A program made the translations under genes and the position numbers. Below the pieces are notes generated by a model. The model was not told the DNA's origin, made no database searches, and worked only from the letters and a program-made list of their open reading frames with translations. From Psammoneis japonica (Eukaryota), in contig QPGO01000038.1 of assembly GCA_008632985.1 (NCBI GenBank), forward strand, positions 521,939 to 545,483: DNA of 23,545 nt. Reading direction: 5' to 3'. Each line of letters begins with the position of its first letter. The first letter of the stretch is position 1. This document shows, piece after piece, positions 1 through 18,146 of the stretch.

Positions 1-1153
1 GCCTTTCATCCATTGCCGCAGCAAGATGTGACAATCCAATGATGTTTGCTGTTCTCAGGGAACTCGCCCAAGTTGGAAAGGATCTTGTGAAGGGAACTTT
101 GGGCTTCTTTGCTGTGAACACACACTCATTGGGGCAAGTCATCATCTTGGCCATTGCAAGCCTCAAAGCCCTTCTCACCACCGTGATCCTTTGTGAAGCA
201 CCACAAAGGATGCAAGCAGCATCCCAAGTTGAGTGAGTGATGTTGGAAGTTTTTGCGCCATGCACATGTCCCAGTGGGAGAGTCATCATGACAGACCGGA
301 GGTTCTCTGAACAGCATTTTCTGATCAGGGGTCAAGCTCACAACAAAGAGAGTGCAGCCATTGAGAATGATGCAATCAGAGGCATTGATGTGATGACGGA
401 ATCCATGGTCACAATGGACGAGTGAGCTCTTCAGGGTGGCGTCTCCATGTTCTTTGCGGCTGCAGCATTTGCGGGCATTGGCAGGCAGAGCATCAGGGTT
501 GAAGAGATGTTTGGATGCAGTGGAAGTTGCAGTGCTTCCAGATGTCTTGCCGGAGGCAGCAGAAGGCAGAGCAGTGCTCGGCGCAAACTTGTTGAGGGCA
601 GTGATTGAGTCATTCACACCAGTGGTTGCAGGTCCGGAGCTGGTGGCAGGCGAGGATGCAGGCTGTGGTTTCTGCTGGCAGGGCTTGAGGGAAAACTCTT
701 TCCAACCCCAACAATGCCATGTCATGTCAGGATCAATGCAAATGTGTTGTGTGGAAATGACAATGTGTGTCGTTTGATCATTGCTCCAGAGATTGTCTTG
801 ATCATCAACGACATGGCTGGAGACGTCGCGCGGATTGCACGAGGCCTGGCGGGGTTTGCAGCACGGAATGCAGCTTGACCCACAATCGTCTTGACAGGCT
901 GCATGTCCACAGGATCAGCCGTGCATGGTGGGAATGTTGTGCAGATGATGTGATCTTGAGATGAGCCCACATGATCATTCTTGGGTTGAGCGTGCTCTGG
1001 ATTGTCAAAGAACGGGCCCAGGTCAATTGTTGAGTCCGTGCGCACCTCATTCAAACACGCGCGGAGATGAGGTGTCAATGCATGTTCTTGAAGCTCACAA
1101 TGGATCTCTGCAAGAGACGTTGGAGTGGCCTTTGCAAGGTCAGGGGATGCCAT
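1..1153 (-). pseudogene. Gag-like protein of a diatom copia element, frameshifted and hypermutated
   Basis: Two ORF pieces (722-1288 and 126-725) lie in different frames, and reading continues past the TGA at 126-128. The string AWRKNFQHHSLNLGCCLHPLWCF...GF...DDDLP...LHKILS...FP...IVTSCCGNG matches my recollection of CoDi Gag (WY..F..H....G.Y.HP.WCF...DDLP...GDGY) once Cys/His/Arg are read back as Tyr. Recognised from memory, not by search. Confidence 0.65.
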
Positions 1154-1343
1154 GGTTGCACTTGGTGAGAGCATTTTTGGTCGCGCACATGCAGAAATCT
1201 GGTGTGTTTCTACGATCGTGAAAAATGCCGGGAAAGCAAGCAAAAATTGTTGCTGGAACAGACAACGAGGCTTGCTTTGTTGGCTCACAAAACAAATGAA
1301 TCAAGGTGGAAAGTGTGGTGCAGAGTTCTGTGGCACAGCACAA

Positions 1344-1353
1344 GGCCACAACC
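1344..1353 (-). promoter_or_regulatory. Putative primer-binding site (internal tRNA-iMet type, degenerate)
   Basis: The minus strand reads ...TGTCA|GGTTGTGGCC immediately after the putative LTR end. The copia-type PBS is GGTTATGGGCC/GGTTATGAGCC, so this differs by TA->TG and one missing base. Confidence 0.55.
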
Positions 1354-1964
1354 TGACAGAACACTGACGGTCAATGATGACAGAGGCACAAAAGACTCCC
1401 CAAGCACTGGGGCTGTGACAACACAAGTGCCATGCCCTGTGCAAAAAACAGGGTCCAAGCACTTGGTTGCAAAGAGGTCAACAATTCTTGTGCTGTGCAA
1501 ATCATGGGGCTGTTTTTGCAGAGTGCGTGCATGTGCGACAGCAGGACATGCGGAGCTTCAGCCCTTCCATGCAGCCAATCATGCTTGGTCCCTTCACATG
1601 CAAGGTGAGTCACGCGCGCAATGGCCAGTCATGCTGGTCTCAGTTGCATGGATGTCCAGCAGACCATCACAGGTCTTGCACTGGGAGTCACGTTGTCCAG
1701 TGTGCACTTCTGCGGGATCAGCATCGGAGTTGCCTTGGCAGTGGTGTGTGCAGTTGCACGGCAGAAAGTTTCAGTCCAAGGGTTGTCTTTGCCCAGCTCC
1801 ATGTCTTGCACTTGGAGTGCTGCACGAGCACAAGCACTGCATCAAGAAAATGCAATGCACAGTGTCAAGTTGTGTGCGTTCCACTGTGCAGTTCACCCTG
1901 GGTTAAAAAAAAAAGGTGGCGCATCGACACGTGTGCAGAGTTGATCAGGCTCCACTCTCTGTCA
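1354..1964 (-). repeat. Putative 5' LTR (~611 bp)
   Basis: Bounded by a perfect 7-bp inverted repeat, TGACAGA (1354-1360) and TCTGTCA (1958-1964), giving TG...CA ends, and it abuts the PBS. The outer boundary is uncertain because the partner LTR is outside the window. Confidence 0.45.
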
Positions 1965-1994
1965 CATGGCAACACCCCTTCTGTCTTTGACAGG

Positions 1995-2030
1995 CAATGG
2001 ACAAGGCAAAACCAATGGACAAGGCAAAAC
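1995..2030 (+). repeat. Perfect 18-bp tandem duplication CAATGGACAAGGCAAAAC x2
   Basis: Seen directly at 1995-2012 and 2013-2030. It precedes a T-rich non-coding stretch and may be a subterminal repeat of a DNA transposon. Confidence 0.9.
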
Positions 2031-2657
2031 AATTTTGCTCATGTCACACTCTTTCACTTTCACAGAAAGAGCACAACAAATTTGCATTTGAGTGGCGGGT
2101 TTTTTGTCGTGAAGCTCTTTTTGCACCAGCTCAGGTTGTTTTTTGAAGTTCACGTGCCTTTTTGGGCATTTTCATGCCTTTTCCGGGCATTTTTACAATT
2201 CTCACAAATTTTGGTGCCGAAGTGTCACATTGTTTCTGACCGTTTGTTGAGTTGGTTGAAGTCAGTCAAACCAAATGGTCTGCAGCCCATGAGCAGTTGA
2301 GTGCTCTCATTTTTTTAGAGCACGTTGACTTTCTTGTGTGTGATTTGTCACACGCTGGTTTTTCCGTTGCACCCTTCGAGCGTTTTGTCACATGACGGCT
2401 TGTTCAGCACTTTTTTGCATGAAGGCAACATCAGAAGAGAGCACGGTGCACCTCCTGTGTGCATGCTTTTCTCACACAATGGGTTTTTCTGTTCAACCCT
2501 TTGAGCACCACATCAATTGACGTCGTGCATCCAAGTGTCAGTGTGTGCAGTCTTTCTCACTGCGTGTCATTCTTTGTGCAGGCCTTTTGTCTGACGTGCT
2601 GTTTGGCCTTTTTCTTTAGATGCAGTGGCTGGTGTCTTTGCCGCGGCATGGACATTC

Positions 2658-3954
2658 TCACATCAAAGTGTCAACAAATGACGTGTGCACAACAACGCTG
2701 CTCATGCACAGAATCAATTGCATCTGGCGCTGCGCGAGCATCAGCTCCAGGCCATTTGCAGGCCTTGCGGAAATGTCGCATCCATTCTGCATCCCAGAGA
2801 TGTGGAAAACATGCCACAGGCAGTGTCGCAAGTCATTTTCTGTTGACACTTTGTCTCAGGCAGTTTGGCATGTCTTGGCTGCTGTTTTTGCACAGTTTGC
2901 AGTGCTGCCTTCTTGGCAGTCATCGGTGTCAGCATCTTTCTCACCGGCGATGAATGAAATTTAGAACAAGATTCTCAGATTGCTCATGAAACGCAACATC
3001 TGCGGCTTTTGTGTCAAGCGTGTTGAATCTTGGAGCTTGATGAGATCAATTTTCTCATCGCTCAGCAGTGCATGCTGTGCATCACCGCTGCTGTCAATCG
3101 CTGAAAGTTCTGAAAAAACTCTTGCATGTTCTTGCCACACGATCGCCACCTTTGACGATTTTTTTGCTCTCTGCTGTCCTCCCAAGGAAACAGTCACAGA
3201 GAGCAGGAAATTGATGCTCTGTTCATCAGAGGCGTTGATGTCGCAACATCTGTGATTTTTGTGCAAAGTGCATGATTGCATTTTGGCACCACCTCATCTA
3301 AATGTGATGATTTTCTCCATTTGTGCAATTGTCACAAAGCTCCCAATCATCACATCCGAAAGCTGTTGCCTGTCACTTTTTGTGTTTGCACCCACATCAC
3401 AACAACATGCAATGTCCAACAATGTTCCAATTGATGTGTTTTCATCTAGTTTCATCATCATGATGCAAAGTGAACACCAAATGTTTGTCCAATCATTCCG
3501 TTTCCTCCTCTCCACTCGTGTCCGGGGGTGTTGTCCACATCATGCCTTGCCTGTTCAGTCCATTCACAATGTTGCATGCTTGGTCACTTTCTTCTTTGGT
3601 CCCATGCAAGAATGCCAAAACTGTGTCTCCAGCTGCCGGGTGAACCCCAAGCACCTCCATGCGAATGTCACGGCTGCCTCCCTGAAACCTTTCTGGCAAC
3701 TGAGAAATCTCTCCTTGCTTTGGCGCAGGCTTCTTCTCCATTGTTTTTTTCTTGTTCTTTGCTCTTTCTTCCTCTGTCTTTGCCTCAGTGGCCGTGGTCG
3801 TTGCCTTCTCAGTCGTGTTTGCATCTGACTTGTTAGTCTTCGCTGCTGCTGTTTCAGCCGCCTTCATGGTTTCATCCTCTTTGATGTTTGTTGTTGTTTT
3901 TCTTCTCTTTCTTCTGACCTGGACCAAAATTTCTGAGTTGTTTGTCCACAACAT
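2658..3954 (-). pseudogene. Degenerate ORF of unknown function inside the hypermutated domain (probably transposon accessory or cargo)
   Basis: A chain of protein-like minus-strand ORF pieces (3493-3954 with a Lys/Glu/Thr/Ala-rich N-terminus, 3294-3515, 2961-3281, 2658-2849) separated by stops and a frameshift. Family not recognised. Confidence 0.4.
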
Positions 3955-4103
3955 GCATTTCTGGATGTTCCTGTGTCATTTTTGCGTGCGTTGGATGAAG
4001 CCTCCCACGCAATTGTCACCTGCACAAGTGTGCATGTAGAAATCCACATCAATTTGCAGTGCAAACATGCTTCTCTGGCTTCACCTCTTTCACAATTTCC
4101 GCA

Positions 4104-4935
4104 TCACTCCTTGTCATCATTCTCTCCCTCCCACTCATCAGTTTTGCTGTCATGTTCCTCTGCCTTGTCTGAACAGTCCTCAAAACAATCCATTGCCTCC
4201 CACTGTCCGATGGCATCCAGAATTCCTTCGTGCTTGTCATCACTCAAACAATGTGGATCAAGAAGTGAAGCCTCATTCCTGTTGCACATGCTTGGCAGTT
4301 CCAGAGTGGCTGGTGGTCCATTGAAATCAATGTTGGCAATTGCAGCTTGCTTGAGCAACACTCTTGTCTTACATTCCTCAGCATCGCCGGGAGTGTGCCA
4401 TCCTCTGGCCCTTGGAACAGGGCTGAGATGTGTTCCCCAGCAAACCCATTCACTGGCCTTGACAGTTGTGGGTGGATCAAACTCTTTCCACACCTTGTCC
4501 TCCTGTGCTTTGTGGGGGGAGTTCATCCCATTGCAGCAGACAAAAGCCCTCCTCAGATTCACAAGACAATGCAGCACAGCTGTTTGGAACAATTTCCTTG
4601 GCCATTTCCTCAGTCAGAGAGTCCAACACAGATTTGTGAACCAACTGCACCTCATTGGCATCACTCTTGTCTGTTTGAATCACCTGGCACACTTGCCAAT
4701 CATTCAGTCCCTCAAAGATGGACCACAGTTTGCAAGCTTGGTTGCCACCTGCATGTCATGGCTGCTCTGTTGGCTTGACATTTTTCACCCATGGCCGTTT
4801 GAGCTGATCCAGGCAGGCTTCACAAGCACAAGGAATTCTTCGCATGGCAACCCAACCAGTGGGGAAAAGAGGTTCAAATCGGAAATGGCGCACGGCTCCA
4901 ATGCCACAATGGTGCATGTGCACTTGCACCATGTT
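4104..4935 (-). pseudogene. C-terminal relic of a probable DNA-transposon-associated protein with a CxCxxC motif
   Basis: Continuous reading HFRFEP...AMRRIPCACEACLDQLKRPW...EQP*HAGGNQACKLWSIFEGLNDW...GFCLLQWDELP, then a +1 frameshift in the G6 run at 4514-4519, then HKAQED...EWVCWGTHLSPVPRARGWHTP... and an acidic tail. It resembles repeated diatom transposase-associated C-termini as I recall them. No DDE core is visible and the superfamily is not assigned. Confidence 0.55.
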
Positions 4936-6111
4936 CTTTGCTGCTCCTGCAATGAACAATGGCAATGGACATTTCTTCAGGGCCCACACAAGAAGTGTGA
5001 CAATGTGCGCACCTCTCCATCATTGTGCAGCACACTGTCATTGAGTTTGGAGTCTTGGTTTTGAGAAGAACTGGCGCGCTCAAATGACGTGCATCACACA
5101 GCATCCGCTCTGTCTTCTGTTCTCAAGATGGGGCAGGGTGGCACCACATCTTCAACAGCAGGTTTTTAGCAGAGCAGAGCATGGTTCAGCAGGTGCAGTC
5201 ATTGTCAAGTGGAGTGGTCAGAGATGGGATTGAGCAGCCACAATGGGATCACACACTTGGCCCCAATGGTGGGAATTGTGGAACTTGGGAACCAGAAAGT
5301 CCTCCTGGCATCATGGCACCAAGGCGGAAGCAAAGGCTGTTTGCTCTAGAATCAACAACCACCTGGTGAAAGACAAGGTGCACTTGTTGGATTCTGTTGA
5401 TGACACCTGAGGACTCACTCTGCTCACAGGTTGTGAAATTGGTTGACCACGGTGCACCCTGTGTTCAAGTCCAGCACTCAGGAAGCCAAACGGCAGTTGC
5501 TGCAAGAGGCACTCGCACTGTTTGGGGGTGTGGGCCAGCTTGATGCCAGAGTTGCAGGGTGAGTGTGGCAGCACCTGAAACACAGAATTTGGGTTTTGTT
5601 TTGAGTTGGAAACACAAAATGCAGCAGGTGCATGTCATAAAATGCTGTCACTGGGCATCATTGCTCTTCACTGTTTGTGAAGGAAAGCAAAAATCTCCAC
5701 ATTGCACCTCTGATGCTCAAGTGAAAGAAAGCACATTTTTGCAATGACCACATTAGCTTTGGCAAATCTTGCAAGCCAAAAGCCGTCTTTGGCAAGTGAA
5801 GCTGTTGTGTGAGCCACTGTCAGCAGCAGCTCAAGTGCTCATAAGACAGCAGACACGCCAGCAGCTGTGAACACCAGACAAAGCTCTGCAGACAGCTTGC
5901 TCATGTTGCTGTTGGAGTTTCAGTGTCACCCCAGCCTCACGCCACTCATCTTGTTCCTTTTCAGCCAAGCCACTTTGTGTGTCTTGCATTTTCGATCGAT
6001 GGAGAACAATCCTTAGACAGACAACTGTCGACTTATCAAAGCAGACGGGCAAGCCCAAGACATGGCCAAATGCCTCAATTATATGCACGTCCTTAGTCAC
6101 TATTCACTATT

Positions 6112-8940
6112 CTAGAAAGTTTCAATCAGCTCTTTGGCGGAGGCATGAGATTCCCGGTCTTTTGCCGTCATGAGCTGCTCCACGACGTCGACATTCGCAT
6201 CCAGCATCTGTTCCTCGTCACTCAATTTCTTCAACACCTTGGCAGCAAAAGAAGCCGCCCGTCCTTCCGTTCGAAAATACCCTGGGGCTGAAAGCAAAAA
6301 ATCAAACGACAGAGCGCCCATGTCAACCCAAGTCGTAACAATTGTTGCCAAATGGGATTCGGCAAGGGGTGCGTCAATAACAATGTCGCTTAAGAATTCT
6401 AGCGGATCCTTCAAGCCTGTGCACAACGATTCTTTCTCCAATTTAGATTCCTTGATGCAGCGCACCAATACAGTGAGCATTTTGGACACATCTCCTGCCT
6501 TCATTTCCATAACCAGTAGGACACTGCTCTCTACCACCTTGCTGCCACGATCTACAGATCCGTCACGTCCTGCACCAATGATTTCATCGAGACTCAAAAC
6601 CGCATCATCCGTATCTCCGCCGCTAAAATACTCTTTCAAAATGCTCTCCGCCTTCTTTCCACATGAATCTGGACTGGGGTATTCAGTCTTACTTTCTTTT
6701 GGAGGCGACGGTTCTGTCTTTTCTTCAGCTACTACCTTTTGGCCGCTTTCCTTCTTTCCCACAGAACCTGACCGTTTCGGTTTGTTACTCTTGAATCCAC
6801 TGGATCGTGAAGAGGTGACATCCGACACGCTTCGTTTTAGTCCCGGCTTCTTCGAGGGGATTTGGACAAAACCTTCGTGATCGACAATGCTCTTTTTGGA
6901 ATCGCGGCGGTCGAGAATACGCACATCACCCGCGCTAGCACGTCGTGGGCCCAATGCTTTCAAATTTCCCGAGCTCGAGCTTCGACGAGCCGCCTTGCGC
7001 TCTTCCTTTGCTACTTCTTGATGGATCTCTTCAATAGTCTTGGCAGTCTCCACTTTGCGTCGTGTTACCCAGCCTGTTCAAAGCACGCCCGTTGACAACA
7101 TTGTTAGATGACAAACAGAGAACGAGCTGAGCAACGTCATAGAATAACGTGAATAATGTGAATAACTCACCCTTGTCTCGCATTTCCAACAAATCCTGCA
7201 GCATAAACTTGAAGCGATTACTAACCTGTTGAGCAGGTTGGTCATTCTTCCTACCGGCCATGACTTCAACTAAATGCCAGCAGTCATTCACTTTCTCGTA
7301 CGGCTGTGACTTCCCAATCTCATTCAATGCCAAGCTCTGGTTCTGAAGGGAAGCACCAATCGTGGTCATCAACTTGGCAAAGCACTCGATCTTTTCTTCT
7401 TCCACCTCGCCACTTTCCTTCTCCGACGCACTTCCTTCGTCGCCTTCTCCTTTCAACAATGTGTCGAGACACCACAACATAATATCAATCTTAATCATAT
7501 CGCCCTTGTAGAGTTCACCAATGAATCGCATATGGCCCAAGTAATGCTTTCGAATCAGAGTCGCGTGGTAATCTATTTCTTCCTTGTCAGTGATACCCTC
7601 TGTAGCCTTTGCAATCTTGTGCGCGGTATCTAACTCGAATTCTTCCTGACACCGAGAGAGTAAGAGTTTCTTGAAAATCTTCTTCTTTTTCGATGACCCA
7701 GCGTTGTCGTCAAAAGCAAACTCTTGTTGAGCCAACTTTGAGCACAACTGCGCATACATGTTTGCAAAGTGAGGTTCCTGCTGTGCCTTGTTGACAATAA
7801 GCCCAATGGCACCCTCCAAACACGCCTTGTTTCGTCCAATCCCCGTGTCAATAAAGTCATCACTGAGCTTATCGAATTTTGTTAGGGACAGCTTGTTGAG
7901 AATCAATAGTGCCTTTTTCAGAACAGCTTCGTCCGACTCTTCATCCTGATCCTTATCGTCGGTCATGACTTTGGCCTTCCAGCGCGTTTCATCATTAACC
8001 TCCAATGGCTTACAATCTTCCAAAGCCGGAGCTGTATCGATAACCTTCTTCTTTGAATGCCGTTTTTCAATCGAAACGTCGCCTCCCTGTCTAGGAGCAA
8101 CGTGTGTCGAGCTGATCTCTTCCTTGCGATTCTCAGCACACCATTCACACGCTTCTGGCGGATTCCAATTCTTGGCAGGAGGATCCAAAAAGTCAAGGCG
8201 TACCGCCAATAAGTCTTCAAAGGTAAAGCGTTGAACCGCCTTTTGCACCTCCGTCGTCCCATCACCGGGATTGCATAGCTCCAGAATGACCAACGTCTTG
8301 TTGCTGCCGTGGTTGTTACTGTTGTTGGGACCACGATTGTGTTGATGGTGGTGGTGGTGATTCCGGTTGCCACCGCCGCCGCCGCCACTATTATTCTGAT
8401 TTCCGTAGCCACCGTGACGTCCACCACCACTGTGCTGACGCTGACTCTTTCGTCCGTGATGGTGGTGGTGATGATTATGATGATCGCCATGTTTATCACT
8501 CGAGTTGGAACGATTGCCCCACTGCTTACCGTGTCCTCCTTTCCTTTGCTTTTGTTTGGATGCAGCTGCTTTTAGCGACGAGGATGATGATGAAGCAGCA
8601 GCTGCGGCGGCAAAGGATGGGGGAGGAGCGGCCCTTACAGCGTCCATGGGCTTACTTCCCCAAGCCATCACGGCAGGTTTTGCCGCAGGCTTCGGAGCAG
8701 CTTCTGGTGCCTTTTTCGGTTCAGCCGGAGCCGGTAAGGCCTTAGAAGTAGCTGGCGATGGCCTTGAAGCCACCTAACGTATCAAAGAGAAAGAAGATTG
8801 AGTGTTGAGACGATTCCTGTACTTCTCTATGATCCATCAATCGCTTCAATCAGCTTCAATTCAAAACAACATACCGATGATCCGGGAACAAACGCCTTCG
8901 AGCTCGGGTTCAAGCCCGCTGCTTTTTTACTCTCAGGCAT
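6112..8940 (-). CDS. eIF4G: Eukaryotic translation initiation factor 4G (MIF4G + MA3 domains); exons 8940-8875, 8773-7171, 7073-6112; 876 aa
   Basis: MIF4G hallmarks ILNKLS..KFDKL, KAQQEPHFANMYAQLC, LLLSRCQEEFE, GHMRFIGELYK and RFKFMLQDLLEMR. The MA3 domain carries ILKEYF...IVIDAPLA. GT-AG introns at 8874-8774 and 7170-7074 splice in frame (…GSS|VAS…, …MRDKG|WVTRRKVETAK…), total 2631 nt. Confidence 0.93.
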
Positions 8941-9379
8941 TCTTTCTTTGACTTCTGACTACTAGAGTAATGTCAAACGAAGGTCTACGGGTCAATCGTA
9001 TTTACAACTTGATGACGTGCTGCAATCTTGACAAGAGCGGCGCTGTTTTCGTCTTCTTGCGATCTGATGGCATGGTCGCGGCGCTCGTCCCGCATTCGAG
9101 AGCTCTGTGCCCAACGCAAAGGTTGAAGTCAACGTAGTATGTTTTTCACGTACGATTTGCGTAGCCATTTTTGGCGGGTAATCTTCTACGTACTTTAACG
9201 TAGAGAATGTATGGAGCGAGACGATCGGGTTATGAAGTGATGGGAATGAGAAAGATTATCGCGCACTATCGTCAGCATCATCGTCGGCATTTTGTTCTCA
9301 CTTCTTATGCTTTTCTCCGGTATTAATTGTCAACTACCATACCTTTTACCGAACTTCAAACAACGAGAAACAAGTGACC
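8941..9379. promoter_or_regulatory. Short divergent (bidirectional) promoter region
   Basis: ~440 bp between the head-to-head ATGs at 8940 (-) and 9380 (+). It contains several ACGT-core motifs (9015 and ~9132-9202). Confidence 0.5.
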
Positions 9380-10465
9380 ATGGCGTTCATCCGCATCAGC
9401 AAAAACAATCGTGCGACAGCAGTGTTGATTATGTTCATGCTGAGTTTGATAACAGCCTTTCAAACTTTCTCAACGATGACCACGTCCTTCAGGCGGAGGA
9501 CTAGACAAAGGAATCGAGATTTCTTTCAAACAATGGCATCTTCTAAGGGCGAAACAGCGGGCAGCAAGCAAATACTGGAAGCCTCGATTGAAGGTGTGTC
9601 GGTATCGGATCGTGGCTTTCGGGTAGTGCTGGCTGTTCCTATCGAGAGTAATAGCAATTCTTCTTCCTATCTCGCAATCCAAGTCACGTCCAGTCCTCCC
9701 GACGACACCCTCTCCGCGACGTCTGCTGAGGCTCTCACATTGCTGCAGTTGATTTCTAGTGTAGACATGGCTGGTCCTATTCTGCCACCAGAGTTTCTAG
9801 GACAGATTACTATTCTGCATTGTGAAGAGCAAAACGATAAGAATGAGCAAGAACAAGCTTTCCTTGGGCTGGTAAAGGATACCCTACCAGAGCCCCTGTA
9901 TTCAGAGTGCAATACATGGCAACGATCCAAAGTGCGATTACCAAAAACGAGTTTGAATCAAGTAACAATAACGGTCGAAGACAATATAATGGACTGGACT
10001 TTATCCTGTCGATTGGTTCAATTTCCACAGTTGGACGAGGTGAAGGTGAAACCTACTCCTGACATTTTGAAGCAGGTCTGTTATTCGTACAACGAGAAAT
10101 CATCAGCTGCGTTTAGCTGTTTAGCATGTGCCTTGCGATACAAAGCTCGCATATCGTTGGAAGTACTGGGTGATTTTGACTCGCAGCAAGACTCGCCTTC
10201 ATTCCAGTGGTTGGAGACGAAGGATGCGCTGCAAGAGACTTTTCCAATGTACAGATCCAGCACAGCACTCAAGACCCAATCGGATAGAGTCCACACAAAT
10301 ATTGAACGGGGATTCGAGATTCACAAGTTGTCTGGTGCACTACGCATTGCAATGGAGCGAGGTGACGAGGAAGCGGTTAAAAAAATCAGACAAGAGTTGG
10401 ACAAATACGATTCCATGGATGATTTGCCGACGACTCCGAACGACGGTTTAGATCAAATGCAATAA
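9380..10465 (+). CDS. Bifunctional nuclease (DUF151/BFN)-like protein with C-terminal UVR-type helical hairpin, probably plastid-targeted
   Basis: 361-aa intronless ORF. Hydrophobic leader ending ITA-F; IEGVSVSDRGFRVVL, SAEALTLLQL, ACALRYKARI (compare BFN ALALR..API); C-terminal LRIAMERGDEEAVKKIRQEL is UVR-like. Confidence 0.6.
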   Translation: MAFIRISKNNRATAVLIMFMLSLITAFQTFSTMTTSFRRRTRQRNRDFFQTMASSKGETAGSKQILEASIEGVSVSDRGFRVVLAVPIESNSNSSSYLAIQVTSSPPDDTLSATSAEALTLLQLISSVDMAGPILPPEFLGQITILHCEEQNDKNEQEQAFLGLVKDTLPEPLYSECNTWQRSKVRLPKTSLNQVTITVEDNIMDWTLSCRLVQFPQLDEVKVKPTPDILKQVCYSYNEKSSAAFSCLACALRYKARISLEVLGDFDSQQDSPSFQWLETKDALQETFPMYRSSTALKTQSDRVHTNIERGFEIHKLSGALRIAMERGDEEAVKKIRQELDKYDSMDDLPTTPNDGLDQMQ

Positions 10466-11231
10466 TGAAAGAATCCCTTTCCAGCCATCATGAAATTACA
10501 AGAATGTTGTGCCTTTTGTATTGTGAATCATGAAAGCCTCGTTGTCGATAGGATGCTCTTAGCTAGTTCATTGGCTGCGTTAGGGCATAACGCCAAATAC
10601 TCTTAAGATACTCAAAATGAGTTGAAAAGAATGTTAGGACCAGGGTATTATGAGGGAAAATGATTGCACCGTATGCTGCATCAATAGTTTGCATGCCTTA
10701 TCTACTAGAGAGTTCATGCGCAGAGCCAAGGGGAAGGTGTGCGATGCTTCAACTTATCGAGATAAACTAAATGAAATAGGAAAGGTAGGCCGCAAGCTGT
10801 TATGACATCTTGCATCAGCTACACTCATAGAGATGATACGTCGCACATTGTAGATTCACGCTTACTCCACTCTAGAGAGTTCATTGGCAAAGCCAAGAAA
10901 GTTTTTGCGATGTTTTATCGTTTTCTAGATCAAACTCAATGCAATGTGTAGGCAACAAGCCGTACAAGGCTAACTTATAAACGTTGCGACGTCTAATCAC
11001 AGCTACAATCATAAAGATGATTCGGTGCACATTGTAGATCCCTCTCCCATCTAGTAGACAAGAAAGACACGGGTCAAGGATGTTCGTGTCCCATCCAGAG
11101 TAACTGCATAATTCTCTACAACGCACAGGCTAACGTCTTGATGGGTAAGAAGCAAAGTTGAGGTCTCTATATGGGCTCTATTATATATTAGCTTATTCTG
11201 TGTGGGGTGCTGCATCATGTACCGCAGCTTT

Positions 11232-11906
11232 TTATGACGCAACAACCAAGGTGCGTGGTTGCTGCTGCTGTTGTACCGGTGTTTGCTCTTCATCACCACA
11301 TCGCTGCCTCACATTTCTTGCAACTTCTTGGGCTGCTTCTGTGAGAGATCGACTCGAGTGACGCTTCCGGCTCTTGGTAAGCGGGAATGGGATGACAGGA
11401 ATCTCTGGCATTGACTGAACAAGACTCGGGTGATAGACTTGGTAAAAGTCCTTCTGTCCTGTCTGCAGTGCCACTTGTCTCGCCCATGCGGTACATCTGG
11501 CTGCAATGGTAGCGAGCGCTTCCGGTGATTCGTATCGCTCCTGCGCTTTGAGGATAGCGCAGTTGGCCAAGAACTTGTGCTTTTGTCGTTCTAGGGAGAT
11601 ACGGTGCTCGAGGCCTCTTGATTCAGGAGCTTCCTCGTTGCCAGAGTACTGCTCGACTCGCAACGCACGGCACAAGTCCCGAGCTTCTTGTTTGAACTGT
11701 TCCAGTTGTGATTGCTCGTACCAGATTTCGTTGCGTTCTTGCTGGGTAATGCTACAGCTGCATGGCACTGTTGACATGACTTGAACAGTATCGGAGAAAC
11801 ACACTCCGCGTGATCGTCGGCGGCCTACGTTTGGCTTTGCAACCATTGGTTCCGCTGGGACTGTGATTGTGAGCTTGGAGAGAGCGGTGGTTTCAACCTT
11901 GCACAT
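11232..11906 (-). CDS. Diatom-specific hypothetical protein (V.F..VQV...WY...RGLE family), 224 aa
   Basis: ATG at 11906. Motifs RGVCFSDTVQV, EIWYEQSQLEQFK, RGLEHRIS and AILKAQ are typical of an expanded family of uncharacterised diatom proteins. Confidence 0.75.
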   Translation of the reverse strand: MCKVETTALSKLTITVPAEPMVAKPNVGRRRSRGVCFSDTVQVMSTVPCSCSITQQERNEIWYEQSQLEQFKQEARDLCRALRVEQYSGNEEAPESRGLEHRISLERQKHKFLANCAILKAQERYESPEALATIAARCTAWARQVALQTGQKDFYQVYHPSLVQSMPEIPVIPFPLTKSRKRHSSRSLTEAAQEVARNVRQRCGDEEQTPVQQQQQPRTLVVAS

Positions 11907-12618
11907 GATTAAGTTGTATGATGGTAATGTATGTAGTAAGTAGTTGAGAGTCAACTGCAGGAGTCAATTGCCATACAGTAGTACGATGTGATGTTCTTCT
12001 TTTCTTTTTTGTGCGACGAGCAAAAGTGTAATAAGAGAAATGAATGAACCTTCGCGAGAACAGCCGCGAAAGGTCGTGAAGCCGCGAGACATCGCGTGTG
12101 TGGAACACACGCTCCAATGCCGTATTAACGATGACTGATTCAAACACATATGGAGAATCTGTGTAACTTGGACAAACTATCGAGACATTCACGATTGGGA
12201 TTGCTCTAAGACAAAAGTAAGTACGTAGAGATGTACTGTACGTGTGTCAATTCTTCACGATTACAGCGCCAGCCAGCTTGACGACATTCTGAAAAAGCAC
12301 GATCATTAATTGATTTAGTTTCTAGTCATTAGCGACTTCTTCGGTACTTTCAGTGTTAAAGGAGAGAAATGACCATTCGTAATCGCGATTAGAAAACTAT
12401 CATTTTCACGTGTAACTGAACGTCAATTCTATATGCTTCTTTCTTTGTAAGTATAATTGCCCATGTTCAACTTTTATTGTTGTTAGATGCCAATGCCCTC
12501 TTTCGCGCGCTTTTTGCTGGTTGAGAGAGAAGTCCGAGGAATCGAAAGATCCAAACGCCGATGAACGATATAGGCGTCGTCGTTTTCGTTTCCACAGCAC
12601 CGGTATTTTGAGTTCATA

Positions 12619-14079
12619 ATGAGACGCCCGTTGTTTCTTCTCACCATCAGACTTGTCAGTAGTGTCCATGGTTTTTCTCCGTCGACAATACGTGAGAAGC
12701 TGCAGAGGACTCCGACTCAGCGTGCCAAGGTTTGCGTGATTGGCGGTGGCGTCAGTGGTTTGACAGCGGCCGCTGAAATAGGTCGAGATGCGATTTTGCT
12801 CGAATCAAGTGAAACGCTGGGAGGACGAGTTCAATCTGATCTTGTGGAGGGCTTTATTTTGGACCGAGGCTTTGCGGTCTTTATTGAGGAATATCCTGCC
12901 GCCAAGAAATTGCTAGACTACGATCAACTAGATCTCCGCCAGTTTCTTCCAGGAGCTCTCATCAAAACAAACGACAGAACTGAAAAACTTGCCAGAGTAG
13001 TTGACCCACTTCGAGGCGGCGATCTACTCACAGCTCTCTTCACACCGGTAGGAACCTTTCGAGACAAGCTTGCCATGCTGCCCTTGCTTATCAACGTTCG
13101 AACCAAGTCCATACAAGAACTATTTCAGGAACCTGAAACCGATACTTTGAGCTATCTACAGGATCGGTTTTCAAACGATATGATTTCTAAGTTCTTCAAA
13201 CCATTTTTGCAAGGGATTTACTTGTGTCCCCTGGAGGAACAGTCTTCTCGCATGCTATTATTCGTAATGAAAATGTTCTCGGAAGGCGCTGCGACACTTC
13301 CGGCAAAGGGGATGCAGGCTGTAGCCGATCAACTTGCTGAGAAAGCAACCAATGCCGGGGTAGAAATATGCAGAAACCGACGAGTAAAGAGTATTTCGAA
13401 GGAATCTGACGGGTTCTTGATAAAGTGTTCTGGCGGACCAAACGTTGTCGCCGACTCAGTGATTTGCGCAACAGAGGGACCAGCGGCGAAAAAGCTCCTA
13501 TCCACATTTCAAGGACTCGAGTCTCTTGCGGACGGTCCAGATCAGCCACAACGGTCTGTGGGCTGTCTCTATTATACTTTTGATACGTCAGTACCAGTTT
13601 CAGATCCCATTCTTATCTTGAATGGCGTGGACAACGAATCTGAGAGTCTCCCCATCAACAACATCTGCTTTCCGTCTGTGGTAAGTAGCAGCTATGCACC
13701 TCCTGGCTCTGGGCTTTGCAGCGTTACAGTGCTGGGACATGTCATGGAGTCGTTCCAGAATAGTACCGACGAGCTTGACACGGCTGTTCGCAAGCAACTG
13801 GTATCCTGGTTTCCTGACTACGAAATGGACATTCTGGGAAAATGGAATCTGAAAGGCACCTACCACATCAAATTTGCCCAGCCGGCACAATTGTATGGTC
13901 CAATGCCGGCTAATGTGAACGGCGGTCGATCGTGTGATTCCTTTCTCGGTCAGCGGCTTCCGCCTGGTCTGTTTGTTTGTGGCGACTACATGGCAACTGC
14001 CACCCTCAACGGCGCACTTGAAAGTGGTTTGTTGGCCGCAAGAGCTGCGTCGACACACATTATGACGCAGGAAGAGTAA
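12619..14079 (+). CDS. FAD-dependent oxidoreductase (flavin amine oxidase / protoporphyrinogen oxidase / phytoene desaturase-like superfamily), probably plastid-targeted
   Basis: 486 aa. Rossmann motif VIGGGVSGLTAA, LESSETLGGRVQSD, LDRGFAVF, C-terminal FVCGDY...TLNGALESGLLAA; leader ending VHG-FSP. Confidence 0.85.
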   Translation: MRRPLFLLTIRLVSSVHGFSPSTIREKLQRTPTQRAKVCVIGGGVSGLTAAAEIGRDAILLESSETLGGRVQSDLVEGFILDRGFAVFIEEYPAAKKLLDYDQLDLRQFLPGALIKTNDRTEKLARVVDPLRGGDLLTALFTPVGTFRDKLAMLPLLINVRTKSIQELFQEPETDTLSYLQDRFSNDMISKFFKPFLQGIYLCPLEEQSSRMLLFVMKMFSEGAATLPAKGMQAVADQLAEKATNAGVEICRNRRVKSISKESDGFLIKCSGGPNVVADSVICATEGPAAKKLLSTFQGLESLADGPDQPQRSVGCLYYTFDTSVPVSDPILILNGVDNESESLPINNICFPSVVSSSYAPPGSGLCSVTVLGHVMESFQNSTDELDTAVRKQLVSWFPDYEMDILGKWNLKGTYHIKFAQPAQLYGPMPANVNGGRSCDSFLGQRLPPGLFVCGDYMATATLNGALESGLLAARAASTHIMTQEE

Positions 14080-15938
14080 TATCGGATGCCATTGGTCATT
14101 CTGCAGACTGGAAAACAGCATTGAGAATGATTCATGTTTGAGATGTGGACGATTGGGATGTGGACGAGGACACATCTCGGCACAAAACTCACTTGGAAAA
14201 ATTTATCATCGCTCCTCAGACATTTATTTTTTTAATAATCGAATAGCTTGAAGCTATTGTCACTCAAAACTGGTTGATGGCAGGAGCTACTAAAATGCAA
14301 AATGCGAGGTTTCTTATTGAACCAGTGGCTACCACAATGGTTGCGAGCTTTTTGACGAGGACAGAGCGGAAAGCGAGACCAAGCGGCTGCGGTTTCCAAG
14401 TTCCTTTGTCTTATGAGCTCGGACCGATAGTCCAATGGAGAGGGGTCAAAACATTCATCATAGATGCGACGGCCTACCCGTCAACGTCATGCAGACAAAG
14501 CTAACCATTGAAGGTAGTTGTTTCAATAACGAAAACAACAATGGCCAGTTTGTACCTGTAATGTCGTCTAGTTTAAATCTACAAGTACCATAAAAAGCAA
14601 AGGAAGTACGTTTGTACCATAAATAATAATTACGGTATAAAGCCGCGAACTGGAAGATTGTTGAGTAGGGGTCTTTTGCCCCGGGGTTTTGATGGAGAGT
14701 ATTTTTTTTTCGTTCTGTGGGCCTGAGCCAGGGCAGCTGTGCCCGAGGAGGGGGATGCCGTACTACTAAGCTCGCCTTTTACACCACTTAGCAGGGTCTT
14801 ATACCCTTTCTCACCTCAGATGCTATTCACTCCTTTTCTTAGTTTGGCCTCTTTTCAATTTTTTACGCTCAATAATACCACACGGTATAGACTTTGGTGG
14901 ATAACAAGGTCACTAGCCGATCAACCCCTGTCCTGCGGGAAGGCGTATCCACAGTAACATTGACAGGGTCCCGGTTCTAGGCCGTGCTTCCTTTTTTAAT
15001 GTCTCAGAACGCTCTCGTCACCAAGGATTGTTTTGTACTGGAGGAAGAACCCGGTCCACATCATACGCAATCACAACAATGAACGCAACTACACCCAAGC
15101 CGAATCCAGCGTATTCCAACCATTCACCACAATCATCCGTCATCATGAAATTCCAATAGTAAGTATTGAAGGAAAGAACAGCATCACAGACACTGAGACG
15201 CTCCTCCTCAACCTACAAATGAAAACACTCAATCACACGGATGATGCGTGGTGCTCCACAATCGGGGTGTCAAACCATCGACAAGAAACCCTCAATCTCA
15301 TGTCGTGGAGGTTCTGGAAGTCGAATATGGACTCTAAACAAACGCCACGCAGAGTCCAAAGACGAGCTACAGTTCCTCTACGACACGAGAGTGAGAACAC
15401 TACTTCTTCGAGTCGACGGCGATCATGGTAGAGGCAGGCATCACGCAGGCGTTGTCTGACTTGGCTATAGAAAAGTCCATGGTTGAGAATGCATACAATA
15501 CAAACCGCGGCCTTCGTTCTTACCCCAAAAACAACCCTGACAATTCTCTGTTTCGATGAATTGTGACCAATGATTGATGTTCCGATCAGCTATCACGCTC
15601 AAGCGACCAAGCTCAGCGACATACCAGGAATGCGTAGATTCTACACGAATTCCGAAACACGACTCATTTCACGATTGTTAGGATCAGGTTTTGCGAGTGC
15701 AATGAAGGTGTTGGCTCAAATGATAAGGTTTTCAAACGGTCATTTTTCAGCTACCTTTCTCTTCCCTTGTACCGTCGTCAACAACCGCCGTCGCGGCACC
15801 GTGTGGGCTATGGTGCCGTAATAGATTATGTCGGAGGGAAGTTTCGCAAGTTGAAGTTCGCATGCGATCTTTCGCGCGCGTTTATTTGACAATCGACGGT
15901 ATTTACCACTTGCCACACAGTTCATTTCAACACCGACC

Positions 15939-17027
15939 ATGGCGTTCCCCAAAACGGTCCTGGCTTTCCTAGCAGTTCTAGTTGCTTTTGCGATTCAACT
16001 GGATTTTGGCGTAGAACTACATGAGTGGTCAACTCGACAACCTCGAGTTGATCTGCTTGAGAATAGGAACAGCGAAGACGAAACAAGCTCGGGCGCTCTT
16101 GTTCAATTCTCGAGTCGATCCGAGACCTTGGTTGGCCGAATCTTTTACCCGGTGAATGGCACAGATCAGCCGCCACCCGTAGTCATCCTTGCACATGGCT
16201 TGGGACTTTCGCAAGACTGCTCTCTTACAGGGTTTGTAGAGGCGTTTCGCGGAGCAGGATTTGCCGCCTTTACATTCGACTACGCTACGTTTGGCATGTC
16301 GACCGGCACCCCGCGTCATCAGGTACACCCGGAGAATCTTATTATGGACATTAAAGCGGCCATATCCACACTTAAGGAACGTTCCACCCAGCTCCAAATC
16401 GATGCATCGAGGACGGCTCTGTTTGGGACTTCTCTTGCGGGGGGGCATGTACTCCGTGTGGCAGCCGAGACTAAGGATAACGAGTTGCGCTGCATCATAT
16501 CACAGATCCCACACCTTGCAAGTGGTGCCGAATCTGCTTTTGGAACTATGTTACGGACTCCTGGGTCAACTTTTCTGAGTGTAGGAAAATTAGGTCTTGT
16601 TGCAGTCCGCTGGGTGGTTCAGTGGACGATGGGCAGGTCTTTGTACGTGCCTCTTGCTGGCCTACCTGGTTCGCTAAGTCTGATGCAGAACGATGGTGTC
16701 TTTGAGGGATATCTTTCCTTGACACCAGAAAATGGTGGGAAATTTGATTGGCGAAACGTAGCAACGCTCCCGTCTTCTACTCGAATCCTCAAGTATCGAC
16801 CGCTTGATGCCGTTGAGAACGTGCAAACTCCAGTCTTAATGATTGCAGCCGAAGAAGACACACTCTGCCCTGCTATTCACGTCGAGACAGCTAGAAAACT
16901 CATCGACAGACGCGATACTGAGGTCGTAATACTCAAGGGCGCCCGCCACTTTGATCTCTATCGTGGGGAACAGCATGAGCAGTCGGTTCGCGCATGTGTA
17001 GCGTTTCTGCAAAAGCACATGTCATAG
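15939..17027 (+). CDS. Alpha/beta-fold hydrolase with N-terminal signal or membrane anchor
   Basis: 362 aa. VILAHGLG, FTFDYATFGMSTG, nucleophile elbow GTSLAG, acid in AAEED, His in GARHFDLY. Confidence 0.88.
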   Translation: MAFPKTVLAFLAVLVAFAIQLDFGVELHEWSTRQPRVDLLENRNSEDETSSGALVQFSSRSETLVGRIFYPVNGTDQPPPVVILAHGLGLSQDCSLTGFVEAFRGAGFAAFTFDYATFGMSTGTPRHQVHPENLIMDIKAAISTLKERSTQLQIDASRTALFGTSLAGGHVLRVAAETKDNELRCIISQIPHLASGAESAFGTMLRTPGSTFLSVGKLGLVAVRWVVQWTMGRSLYVPLAGLPGSLSLMQNDGVFEGYLSLTPENGGKFDWRNVATLPSSTRILKYRPLDAVENVQTPVLMIAAEEDTLCPAIHVETARKLIDRRDTEVVILKGARHFDLYRGEQHEQSVRACVAFLQKHMS

Positions 17028-17369
17028 GACAGCACCCTATATGCCAGAGAAACGGTATAGTTGCAACATTTTCCGAAATGTGGTACTTTGCTCTAGAGTG
17101 ATGATAAATCTGTACGTGGCCAAATGGTTTCGGTTCGTTTGGAAAACATACGAATGGTCTTGCGAGGAATGCGAATTGCGGAATCATATAGTACTCACAA
17201 ATTCAACGAGACATGACAAGGTGGCTGATCCTTCTCGGTGCATCTCTCATGCCGTACAAAAAGACCCACACACTGTATCTACTTTCAGAAAAAAGAGCTA
17301 AAAGTGCTATCTATTTAGTTCATAAAAGCGTAGAGCCGCAAATATGATGATTCTCCATCGCGGTTCGCC

Positions 17370-18146
17370 TTATCCACTGTAGCGATTCGTTTCCCGCTCA
17401 AGTTGCACAACACGGTTCAATTCTTCCAATGCTTCGCAAGCTTCAATAGCCTCCACCAAACATTCGTCGCCCAAAGCACCACCAAGAGCTGGGGAGTTGC
17501 TTGCGGAAGCAATCTCCTCCACGTCTGCCCACGCCACCTTAGCTTCTGGTGAATCCTTGCCATTCTCCTCAGAGATCGATTTGGCCTTGGCCATGGCTTC
17601 TCGAAGAGCAGGCGAGTCCGATCCAGGCAATGGGTTTGACGATGGCATTTTGATGGCCTGAATCTCTGAAGCGAGAGTCTTGACATTTTCCATTTTGGGG
17701 CCGAAATCTTGAATGATATCAGATAGCTGCTGCATCTTCTCTTCATACTCTTTGCAAGCGTCGCTCTCGTCCTCTTCAGGAACGTAGCAATCTTGATCAG
17801 TCACACCGCCCGTGTAAGAAGCGCTAAAAGAAGGATTTACGAGTGGTTGAAAGAGAAATGGATTTCGTAAGCTATGCTGCACCAGAGGTGTGTTTTGCCT
17901 TCCATATCTCTACAGTACTTACGAGTTATCAGATGCATCCATCTCCTCCACGATATCCCAAGCCACTCGTGCTTCAGGACTTCCCGCACCATACGTTTTG
18001 CTGGCAGCGACTGCGGCTTTGATGGCTTCGCTCGAGTCGACTCTACTGTTTGAGAGACTGGTCGAGGATCTTACGGTAGTGCCCCATGGCGAAACAAAGG
18101 CATGGCAAGAAGCCACTAGCAATAGGTTCGCAACAACAAGTTTCAT
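17370..18146 (-). CDS. CP12: Plastid-targeted protein with two CP12 domains; exons 18146-17923 and 17823-17370; 225 aa
   Basis: Signal peptide ending SCHA-FV. Two AWxxVEE motifs (ARVAWDIVEE, AKVAWADVEE), each followed by a Cys pair (CYVPEEDESDAC, CLVEAIEAC). The GT-AG intron 17922-17824 splices in frame (678 nt). Confidence 0.85.

Follow-up and report, generated by a model that had tools for sequence, protein, structure and literature searches.

In the 23,545-nt stretch of Psammoneis japonica DNA analyzed here (the window), the dinucleotide TpA has almost disappeared from the first 6013 bases. We judge it probable, at roughly 75%, that this block is silenced and decayed mobile DNA in the nuclear genome of the diatom, altered in place by two separate transition processes; the judgment is drawn from the end state of one locus in one genome. 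One process would be a domain-wide hypermutation of TpA to TpG or CpA (A:T→G:C, on either strand), which has run nearly to completion and whose signature matches the hypermutation measured in the integrated viral DNA of Bigelowiella natans. The other would be the ordinary decay of CpG to TpG or CpA, as for CpG-methylated diatom transposons, which is less complete and uneven. Both would contribute to the excess of CpA and TpG, and together they would have removed Tyr codons, turned Arg codons into stops and killed the element. The block appears to hold at least one 5′-truncated copy of a TIR/DDE transposon among other repeats and spacers.

Along positions 1–6010, TpA occurs 16 times against 387 expected from the base composition (observed/expected ratio, o/e, 0.04; frequency 16/6010 = 0.0027), CpG is also scarce (137/361, o/e 0.38), and CpA (676/338, o/e 2.00) and TpG (665/414, o/e 1.61) are in excess. 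The remaining three parts of the window have o/e values of 0.60–0.65 for TpA and 0.94–1.01 for CpG. At the TpA rate of the flank, 262.5 TpA are predicted per 6010 bases; about 94% of them are missing from the block, and the Poisson probability of finding 16 or fewer is 2.5e-89. The preliminary description of this DNA, which had reported about 16 TpA in 6 kb where hundreds were expected and a great excess of TG and CA, was accurate in both respects. When balanced against the flank frequencies, the block lacks 247 TpA and 189 CpG and has gained 235 CpA and 231 TpG: the sites lost (436) are close in number to the sites gained (466), and the gain is strand-symmetric, as had also been proposed. An attempt to split the TpG excess by tetranucleotide deconvolution into a TA-derived and a CG-derived share gave a crude result (R2 0.47), which was kept out of the evidence. 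Rfam gave no match anywhere in the window, and the tandem repeats amount to two trivial arrays.

The block (1–6013, not assigned to a strand) was delimited by dinucleotide o/e and by the maximum-likelihood change point, which lies at 6013 for TpA and at 6137 for CpG. Since it reaches the left end of the window, where it is open, 6013 bases are its minimum extent only. Its right boundary is abrupt, with about 100 bp between it and the stop codon of a minus-strand host gene that is intact (6112–8773), an eIF4G-like gene with MIF4G (6.3e-32) and MA3 (4.8e-11) domains and with normal TpA and CpG. This gene carries a 97-nt intron on the same strand (7074–7170) with GT..AG ends, across which a read contig joins 7072 to 7170. 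No RNA data set is listed as containing the block, and the contigs of a further read run, X2, cover this flanking gene and hardly the block; these results carry no weight on expression.

Within the block, every 300- or 500-base bin is depleted of TpA (0–3 TpA each). In 500-base bins, the o/e of TpA is uniformly low (0–0.09), whereas that of CpG is uneven (0.07–0.77), which indicates that the two losses are not tightly coupled. This contrast bears on another chemistry for the A:T→G:C changes at TpA, namely, error-prone repair of the Pol eta type (WA errors, T:G mismatches in methylated DNA) or a thymine oxidized or modified to 5hmU, 5fU or a base-J-like form that mispairs with G. Pol eta is prone to A→G errors at WA, and the thymine hydroxylases of protists favour T before A, as in the base J of GGGTTA repeats and the 5hmU at TpA in dinoflagellates. 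Coupled repair would also account for the coincidence of CpG decay and TpA loss, both in the block and in a metagenome relative described below (L021). However, a polymerase acting on the WA motif should erode AA as well, and neither AA (o/e 1.20) nor TT (1.18) is depleted in the block (outside it, 1.10–1.13 and 1.11–1.18, respectively). Thus Pol-eta-type mutagenesis, which the preliminary description had listed as a candidate, is a poor fit, and we regard such chemistries as a whole as unlikely.

The bases themselves were compared with contigs assembled from a single public read run. Such contigs agree with the window without a single difference over 3185–4144 (960 bases) and 593–907 (315 bases), at a k-mer depth (about 40–46) equal to that of the single-copy flank. 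Another contig of 3119 bases spans the block edge (4902–8029), and the eight differences listed at its depth, as many as its own count of differences, all lie at 6712–7291, none inside the block. An artefact of sequencing or assembly, in which TA was miscalled in modified DNA, is very improbable in view of this agreement, even though the only run found to contain the window may be the window's own source. The changes are also evolutionarily sensible (Tyr to His or Cys; Arg to stop, Cys, Gln or Trp), and the same pattern occurs in the separate metagenome contig L021. The confirmation of bases that the preliminary description had called for was thereby obtained in part, the contigs being identical over the two stretches above and the run being possibly that of the assembly, hence not a fully independent chemistry.

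In the same run, 965 contigs map to 1–9000 at a likeness of at least 80%. They differ from the window at 641 places, with 468 transitions vs 163 transversions, and adjacent CA↔TG swaps are found at 341/342 and 494/495 among the 20 differences listed for the block. By our own arithmetic, the 237 of the 965 contigs that are at least 95% alike to the window are too similar for fully independent saturation, so that either some copying postdates the mutation or they are alleles of the window itself. The summed depth of such contigs, which reflects look-alike contigs and not copy number (about 46 in the flank), reveals that repeated and low-copy DNA alternate in the block as a mosaic, in stretches that have no assigned strand. 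Positions 1–3300 are repeated DNA of an unrecognised kind, with many diverged look-alike contigs (summed depth 224–2794) and no Pfam match. The stretch 3301–3900 has flank-like depth (47.7 and 40.7) and is just as poor in TpA (1 and 1 vs 23.4 and 14.7 expected). The most repeated stretch, 3901–5100 (depth 609–3122), is where a transposase relic lies and where CpG loss is strongest (4, 4, 1 and 8 CpG vs 14–19 expected per bin). Positions 5101–5400 are again free of extra look-alike contigs and equally depleted of TpA, as is the DNA of flank-like depth from the last repeated bin to the host gene (5701–6013), where 2 TpA are found in 5701–6000 vs 20 expected. Because the low-copy stretches (3301–3900, 5101–5400 and 5701–6013) are as depleted as the repeats, the entire domain is affected, and the term "repeat-targeted" used earlier proves too narrow.

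The one identifiable element in this mosaic is the relic at 4107–4938 on the minus strand. It is what remains, in broken form, of the C-terminal part of a transposase of a DDE-type family (about 280 codons), with a Cys-rich RRIPCxCxxC motif and a BAH-like domain. Homologues of the relic number 314 at a cut-off of E ≤ 1e-3, the best at 1.8e-27. The long homologues (1003–1218 aa) align to it solely through their residues at about 860–1150, and the N-terminal part of about 850 codons is absent. Two minus-strand frames make up the relic: frame 1 (4516–4938) has an in-frame TGA at 4756–4758, where 67% of the homologues have Arg, and frame 2 (4107–4547) follows a frameshift at about 4516–4547, across which the paired HSPs of the same homologues change frame. 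The copy is dead, as seen in its in-frame stop, frameshift and 5′ truncation. Of 108 conserved columns, 68 are retained. A word-indexed protein search with frame 2 (4104–4613) returned nothing; this method is too insensitive for this mutated sequence, and tblastn finds homologues there.

The assignment of the family draws on predicted structure and on relatives. In the AF2 model of the homologue P0126 (mean pLDDT 76), residues 596–852 resemble the Mos1 transposase core at a middling Z of 8.9 (rmsd 3.6, 172 aligned) and retroviral integrase cores at a similarly middling Z of 8.0–8.5, with no catalytic residues assigned; residues 980–1113 of the model resemble BAH domains (Z about 6). A sequence-profile search of the PDB gave no match, and Foldseek against the PDB gave only weak ones. 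Terminal inverted repeats (TIRs) occur in two relatives, with 28-nt arms (96% complementary, 4817 nt apart) in L005 and 18-nt arms (89%, 4217 nt apart) in L001, and both start with GACG.G.TCC. The window itself has no TIR, and the TIR-like motif is at chance level there (21 matches vs 26 expected), as expected of a truncated copy. By the modelled fold and the TIRs of its relatives, the relic appears to be a TIR/DDE DNA transposon of a family lacking a Pfam model. An LTR retrotransposon was considered and rejected: no LTR pair or internal repeat was found (no long direct repeat in 1–7000), and Pfam, searched with 11 ORFs of the block and with all six read-through frames, gave nothing at the curated cut-off, with no reverse transcriptase, integrase, protease or gag/pol domain. 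The location in transposon DNA was described correctly at the outset, the block being dead mobile DNA with repeats and this relic, but the "LTR" named there was not confirmed.

The same findings weigh against an origin at the RNA level, by which ADAR-like A-to-I hyperediting of transcripts would have been fixed through reverse transcription and reinsertion. That ADARs prefer U on the 5′ side, which the discussion of the B. natans preprint (10.64898/2026.01.13.699255) cites, agrees with TpA as the site. Nevertheless, an RNA route marks one strand, whereas the gain here is symmetric (CpA +235, TpG +231); the sole identifiable element is a DNA transposon, no frame encodes a reverse transcriptase domain, and low-copy spacers and the junction DNA beside the host gene are depleted too. 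We give this origin very little credence.

The direction of the changes can be read from the conserved codons of the relic, which has no Tyr in 288 codons (homologue median 3.4%). At eight conserved-Tyr columns, where Tyr makes up 70% of 581 homologue residues, the window has His four times, Cys once and Tyr never, the conserved TAY codons having become CAY (four) or TGY (one). His and Cys together account for 5.5% of the homologue residues in these columns (P = 2.5e-5 for the window). The other three columns carry Phe (two) and Arg (one), which is beyond what the TpA process alone explains. Where the closest homologue has Tyr, the 22 relatives whose TpA o/e is ≥ 0.45 carry Tyr in 181 of 270 cells and His/Cys in 9, as compared with 0 and 5 of 11 in the window. 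Relatives of the relic protein, in a locus scan run from a small alignment (A2), have TpA o/e values of 0.45–0.94 at 22 of 23 loci, so that the homologues are not equally TpA-free, a point on which the preliminary description had asked for a check. The exception is the metagenome contig L021 (TpA o/e 0.19, CpG 0.03), which has Tyr at 3 and His/Cys at 7 of 14 of the same positions. The normal TpA of the relatives, taken with the Tyr columns now occupied by His or Cys, argues that TA was turned into CA or TG in place on both strands, the direction (A:T→G:C) first suggested. In addition, four of nine conserved-Arg columns now read TGA, TGT, CAG or TGG.

By these sequence comparisons the transposase family is not natively poor in TA, which speaks against a native composition, i.e., an element that arrived TpA-poor from a TA-avoiding donor or virus, or became so by selection, with nothing mutated in place. 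Strong avoidance of UpA and CpG has been described for some viruses. However, a collection of viral contigs contained no relative of the relic family, His and Cys stand at conserved Tyr columns, and the depletion reaches the host gene across stretches that lack look-alike contigs. Selection on the copy is also implausible given its stop and frameshift, and a native origin is thus hardly credible.

As for the mechanism of the in-place TpA process, its targeting would depend on chromatin or silencing state and not on repetition alone. Chemically, adenine in DNA may be deaminated to hypoxanthine, with a TadA/ADAT2-like protein as the candidate enzyme, and a role in defence seems plausible. The natural tRNA substrate of an ADAT2-like enzyme is A34 after U33, that is, a "UA" step. 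Among the 16 surviving TpA of the block, 10 lie in YTAR and none in RTAY; this bias is absent from L021 (YTAR 4/16). A wider reading, which we put forward tentatively and at somewhat less than even odds, is that diatoms and chlorarachniophytes, and so two or more lineages of SAR, share a chromatin-directed editing defence that turns TpA into TpG/CpA, hits DNA transposons no less than viral inserts, and saturates beside CpG methylation decay; the survivor bias (YTAR kept, RTAY gone) would then be the fingerprint of the candidate TadA/ADAT2-like deaminase on double-stranded genomic DNA, and the system would be nature's equivalent of the adenine base editors made in the laboratory.

Mutational genome defence was long regarded as a fungal speciality (RIP, C→T). 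A process that mirrors it, with A:T→G:C changes at TpA, was described in 2026 from one rhizarian alga and may be more widespread than known. If our reading is true, this process is neither a quirk of a single species nor limited to viral DNA, and genetically tractable diatoms could be used to find the enzyme; CRISPR/Cas9 knock-outs are reported for Phaeodactylum (PMC9998398). TpA-poor "orphan" sequences found in the genomes of protists could then also be recognised as mobile DNA that is dead. Blocks of this kind are nearly devoid of TAA and TAG stops and hence contain long false ORFs (one of 375 codons is noted here), and the loss of Tyr hides homology: no Pfam match was obtained in the six frames of 1–6010.

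Among known systems, RIP of ascomycetes is alike in that context-specific transitions kill repeated DNA and spill into adjacent unique DNA. It differs in that RIP, a C-to-T change mostly at CpA, generates TpA and makes the DNA AT-rich, whereas in the diatom block TpA is destroyed and GC is slightly raised. RIP requires duplication and a sexual phase; in the diatom block, unlike in this duplication-dependent process, low-copy spacers are affected. With TpA at 0.04, CpA at 2.00 and TpG at 1.61, the pattern is the opposite one, and fungal RIP was rejected.

For 5mC deamination, DNMT5a-dependent CpG methylation of transposons is described in Phaeodactylum (PMC9998398). The signature of CpG decay is present in the block (o/e 0.38, −189, a matching gain of TpG/CpA, and four of nine Arg codons changed), and this deamination accounts for it and for part of the TpG/CpA excess, the changes of Arg to TGA, TGT, CAG and TGG being in keeping with it. 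It is, however, powerless on TpA and covers only about 189 of the about 436 lost sites; the earlier argument that removal of TpA is beyond both RIP and 5mC deamination is upheld.

The ADAR and APOBEC systems of animals resemble the present case in that parasitic nucleic acid undergoes deaminase-type hypermutation in a preferred nearest-neighbour context, but they use RNA or single-stranded intermediates and mark one strand, whereas the diatom marks are symmetric, made in place, and found on a DNA transposon and its surroundings. Adenine base editors derived from TadA convert A via I to G in DNA; these are engineered and guided by Cas9, and we know of no natural eukaryotic DNA adenine deaminase demonstrated to act in genome defence. 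Early TadA editor variants had a preference for T/C on the 5′ side and C on the 3′ side, a legacy of the tRNA anticodon loop; the contexts of the diatom survivors (YTAR 10/16, RTAY none) can be set beside this preference.

The closest counterpart is the hypermutation of TpA to TpG/CpA measured in NCLDV and virophage inserts of B. natans (Mettrop et al., bioRxiv 2026, 10.64898/2026.01.13.699255). As reported in this preprint, 230 of 231 de novo mutations in two viral regions were A→G or T→C, every one at TpA; the genome has 124 TpA-depleted clusters; its TpA-poor CDS are enriched in DDE-endonuclease and RT domains; and an ADAT-type deaminase is proposed as the candidate enzyme. When the cluster criterion of that study was applied to the window, with Rho taken as observed/expected from base composition, all six 1-kb windows in 1–6000 qualified (Rho_TpA 0.00–0.08, Rho_CpA+TpG 1.75–1.87), vs none of 17 in 6001–23000. 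Several likenesses are seen. One is the change itself, TpA to TpG/CpA on both strands. Another is the long-term footprint, in which clusters of at least 3 kb lose TpA and gain CpA+TpG; the TpA frequency is 0.0018 in the low-TpA CDS of B. natans and 0.0027 in the diatom block. A further one is the restriction to foreign or mobile DNA, with the adjoining host gene spared (edge at 6013, gene from 6112). The differences are as follows. The host belongs to the diatoms (Stramenopila) and not to the chlorarachniophytes (Rhizaria), and the main text of the preprint contains "diatom" and "CpG" 0 times each, while CpG loss co-occurs in the diatom block. The actively mutating NCLDV region of B. natans keeps a Rho_TpA of 0.45, whereas the diatom block is near saturation. 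In B. natans a de novo rate comes from mutation-accumulation lines, the process being active in some lines only, whereas the diatom case is known from its end state. The target is a mosaic of transposon and repeats in place of viral inserts; the relic, with TIRs in its family, a DDE fold and no relative in the viral contig collection, bears no sign of viral origin, and the transposon domains in the TpA-poor CDS of the preprint suggest that such an origin may not be essential. Our literature search found no report of a TpA-erasing signature for diatoms. The initial statement that no characterised pathway does this thus needs amendment, since the phenomenon has been published for B. natans, although no enzyme is known there either. 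The phenomenon itself is known from the 2026 preprint, and what the present block adds to it is the diatom host, the DNA-transposon target, the near-saturation and the concurrent CpG decay.

The first 6 kb of the window (hereafter, the block; positions 1 to about 6013) is almost devoid of TpA. Between positions 1 and 6010, 16 TpA were found against 387 expected from base composition (observed/expected ratio, o/e, 0.04), which confirms the depletion and shows the count in the preliminary description to be exact. In the same region, CpG is deficient (137/361, o/e 0.38), and CpA (676/338, 2.00) and TpG (665/414, 1.61) are over-represented. In the other 17.5 kb of the window (the flank), the o/e is 0.60–0.65 for TpA and 0.94–1.01 for CpG. 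When the TpA rate of the flank is applied to the block, 262.5 TpA are expected, and the Poisson probability of finding 16 or fewer is 2.5e-89. Every bin of the block is depleted (0–3 TpA per 500 bases). Change-point analysis places the edge best at 6013 for TpA and at 6137 for CpG; the left boundary of the block lies beyond the left end of the window. Relative to the flank frequencies, the block differs by −247 TpA, −189 CpG, +235 CpA and +231 TpG: the two losses account for the two gains, and the gains are strand-symmetric. Mutagenesis of WA sites by a Pol-eta-type polymerase fits this pattern poorly, since AA and TT are untouched in the block, where no depletion of them was seen (o/e 1.20 and 1.18). 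Because TAA and TAG are almost missing, the block contains spurious long ORFs, such as the one of 375 codons at 3937–5064 (plus strand), opposite in strand to the transposase relic at 4107–4938; ORFs of this kind are likely to be annotated by gene callers as Cys-, His- and Ser-rich orphan proteins. Elsewhere in the window, TpA o/e reaches about 0.9–1.0, against the usual 0.6, in short stretches at 10501–11000, 14501–15000 and 22001–22500, which are presumably AT-rich intergenic DNA.

The edge of the block at 6013 is 99 bases short of the stop codon of an ordinary eukaryotic gene with MIF4G and MA3 domains (eIF4G-like; 6112–8773, minus strand). The flank also carries genes for an amine oxidase (12619–14079) and an alpha/beta hydrolase (15939–17027). 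Among the best 120 matches to the amine oxidase, an organism is named for nine, and all nine are diatoms at 52–56% identity (Nitzschia, Seminavis, Bacillariaceae, Pseudo-nitzschia, two Cylindrotheca, Attheya, Fragilaria and Epithemia), so the window comes from a diatom and not from Bigelowiella.

The block sequence was compared with public reads. In one run (X1), 73% of the sampled words of the block are present, and contigs built from its reads are identical to the window over 3185–4144 (960 bases) and 593–907 (315 bases). The k-mer depth of the matching contigs (40–46) equals the single-copy level of the flank. A 3119-base X1 contig spans the block edge (4902–8029), and the eight listed X1 differences at the depth of this contig, as many as are counted for it, all fall at 6712–7291, outside the block. 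We take the X1 reads as accurate because the run yielded contigs of up to 315 kb; X1 is possibly the source run of the assembly, and its agreement is therefore not fully independent. A second run (X2) mainly covers the eIF4G-like gene. One X2 contig joins position 7072 straight to 7170 and so skips the 97-nt GT-AG intron of this gene (7074–7170, minus strand); X2 is therefore probably derived from RNA, though not recorded as such. X2 contigs differ from the window at seven single bases in the gene (6336–7910), at places separate from those of X1. Many differences of both runs are transversions, and they may represent allelic haplotypes or residual assembly errors.

Neither the 11 ORFs of the block nor its six read-through frames gave a Pfam match. 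A HMMER search with the minus-strand frame at 4477–5100 found 314 homologues at E ≤ 1e-3 and 96 at E ≤ 1e-10, the best at 1.8e-27 with 42% identity. The long homologues (1003–1218 aa) align by their last ~280 residues, and to positions 4107–4938 (minus strand) only. This relic contains a frame change near 4516–4547 and an in-frame TGA at 4756–4758, and since the N-terminal ~850 codons are missing, the element is a dead, truncated copy. The family, for which there is no Pfam model, was characterized from relatives. In the AlphaFold model of the homologue P0126 (mean pLDDT 76), residues 596–852 resemble the Mos1 transposase core (Z 8.9, rmsd 3.6, 172 aligned) and retroviral integrase cores (Z 8.0–8.5), and residues 980–1113 resemble BAH domains (Z about 6); these Z values are middling by the comparison tool's own warning. 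Terminal inverted repeats flank the gene in two metagenome loci, L005 (1164–6036; 28 nt, 96% complementary) and L001 (168–4420; 18 nt, 89%), and both repeats begin with GACG.G.TCC. The family can thus be read as a TIR/DDE DNA transposon. The preliminary description had placed an LTR in this region, but no LTR, RT or gag/pol was detected in the block. The proteins of about 1000–1200 aa share a conserved RRIPCxCxxC motif and, in the model, a C-terminal BAH-like domain; these features suggest a TIR/DDE transposon family that is so far unannotated and carries a chromatin-reader-like domain.

The direction of change can be read from the relic at Tyr codons, as no amino acid other than Tyr has TA in all of its codons. 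Scoring was confined to columns in which 30 or more homologues align and the consensus reaches 50%. At the eight Tyr-consensus columns, where Tyr makes up 70% of 581 homologue residues, the window has no Tyr (0/8): its codons are CAT, CAC, CAT and CAC (His), TGT (Cys), TTT twice (Phe) and CGC (Arg). His and Cys thus account for 5/8, compared with 5.5% of the homologue residues there (P = 2.5e-5), in agreement with the proposed direction, TA to TG/CA. Tyr is absent from all 288 codons of the relic, the family median being 3.4%. At Arg-consensus columns, 4/9 are now TGA, TGT, CAG or TGG, which are products of CpG decay. The preliminary reading depended on relatives not being equally TpA-free, and it withstood the comparison with 23 family loci from metagenomes: 22 have a TpA o/e of 0.45–0.94. 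Where the closest homologue has Tyr, these 22 keep it in 181/270 cells and have His or Cys in 9/270, against 0/11 and 5/11 in the window. These comparisons show that the family is not natively TpA-free and that TpA loss accompanies Tyr-to-His/Cys replacement. The exception, L021 (1–1182, a sediment metagenome contig; TpA o/e 0.19, CpG 0.03, CpA 1.62, TpG 1.93), keeps Tyr in 3/14 and has His or Cys in 7/14, and is a second, partly hypermutated member. In another locus, L017, CpG is 0.11 and TpA is near normal (0.45). Among homologues from public assemblies, His or Cys occupies Tyr columns in P0244 (5/6), P0201 (3/4) and P0242 (2/4); these and P0164 and P0224 are almost Tyr-free (0–1%), and judged by their protein sequences, all five are probably further hypermutated copies.

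The sequence context of the surviving TpA may bear on the mutator. Of the 16 survivors, 10 are YTAR (six TTAG) and none is RTAY, compared with 16.6% and 28.4% in the flank (P = 4.7e-5); against YTGR plus YCAR in the block (20.5%), P is 3e-4. This may reflect a mutator that favours sites where a pyrimidine follows the adenine on its 3′ side (TAY over TAR). However, the sample is small, the bias is not repeated in L021 (YTAR 4/16), and the ratio of His to Cys at Tyr codons has no obvious fit with it. Alternatively, the bias may come from how new TpA arise.

The extent of targeting was judged from 965 X1 contigs matching positions 1–9000 at ≥80% likeness (104 at ≥99%, 133 at 95–99%, 318 at 90–95% and 410 below 90%). 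Their summed depth is 224–3122 in most block bins, compared with about 46 in the flank, a quantity that differs from copy number and indicates many diverged look-alikes. Between these contigs and the window, 468 places are transitions and 163 are transversions. Two adjacent CA/TG swaps (341/342 and 494/495), each within the same contigs, were found among the 20 block places listed. Such swaps are expected from one ancestral TA (or CG) resolved independently in two copies, but are only suggestive because there are 601 further places. The bins at 3301–3900, 5101–5400 and 5701–6000 have flank-level depth. TpA is equally lost in stretches without extra look-alikes (1, 1, 2 and 2 against 15–23 expected), and the loss runs ~300 bases beyond the last repeated bin before ending at 6013. 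"Repeat-targeted" is therefore too narrow a term: the low-copy spacers are as TpA-depleted as the most repeated stretch. Because CpG loss is patchy (o/e 0.07–0.77 per 500 bases) and TpA loss even, we treat the two as separate processes on one silenced domain. In diatoms, DNMT5a has been documented to methylate transposons at CpG (PMC9998398).

Both TA and CG were changed to CA/TG in place and strand-symmetrically within one delimited domain of dead mobile DNA, which upholds the process, direction and target first proposed for TpA. An RNA-editing route fits poorly, because the changes are strand-symmetric, the relic is a DNA transposon, and the junction DNA is also affected. In TadA/ADAT2-type enzymes, the tRNA substrate A34 is always preceded by U33. 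An enzyme of this type is the candidate mutator here: it would deaminate the adenine of TpA to hypoxanthine, which replication would then turn into G. Thymine oxidation at TpA is a possible alternative chemistry.

The one directly relevant precedent found in the literature comes from Bigelowiella natans and was observed in mutation-accumulation lines (Mettrop et al., bioRxiv 10.64898/2026.01.13.699255). There, one NCLDV and one virophage insert received 231/302 nuclear point mutations at rates about 1000-fold over background, in some lines only; 230/231 were A→G or T→C, every such change at TpA. The preprint also describes 124 clusters poor in TpA and rich in CpA and TpG, reports an enrichment of DDE-endonuclease and RT domains among TpA-poor CDS, and proposes an ADAT2-like DNA adenine deaminase. 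The NCLDV target is single-copy; since low-copy spacers are hit here as well, recognition would be by silent chromatin and not by repetition as such. The cluster criterion of the preprint is passed by 6/6 1-kb segments of the block and 0/17 others. Its main text makes no mention of diatoms, CpG or context past the dinucleotide. The "reverse RIP" of the preliminary description is thus a real process, but it is not novel, having been described in 2026 in B. natans. The host here is a diatom, not a chlorarachniophyte, and the block is a new instance, in another supergroup-level lineage, of this kind of process.
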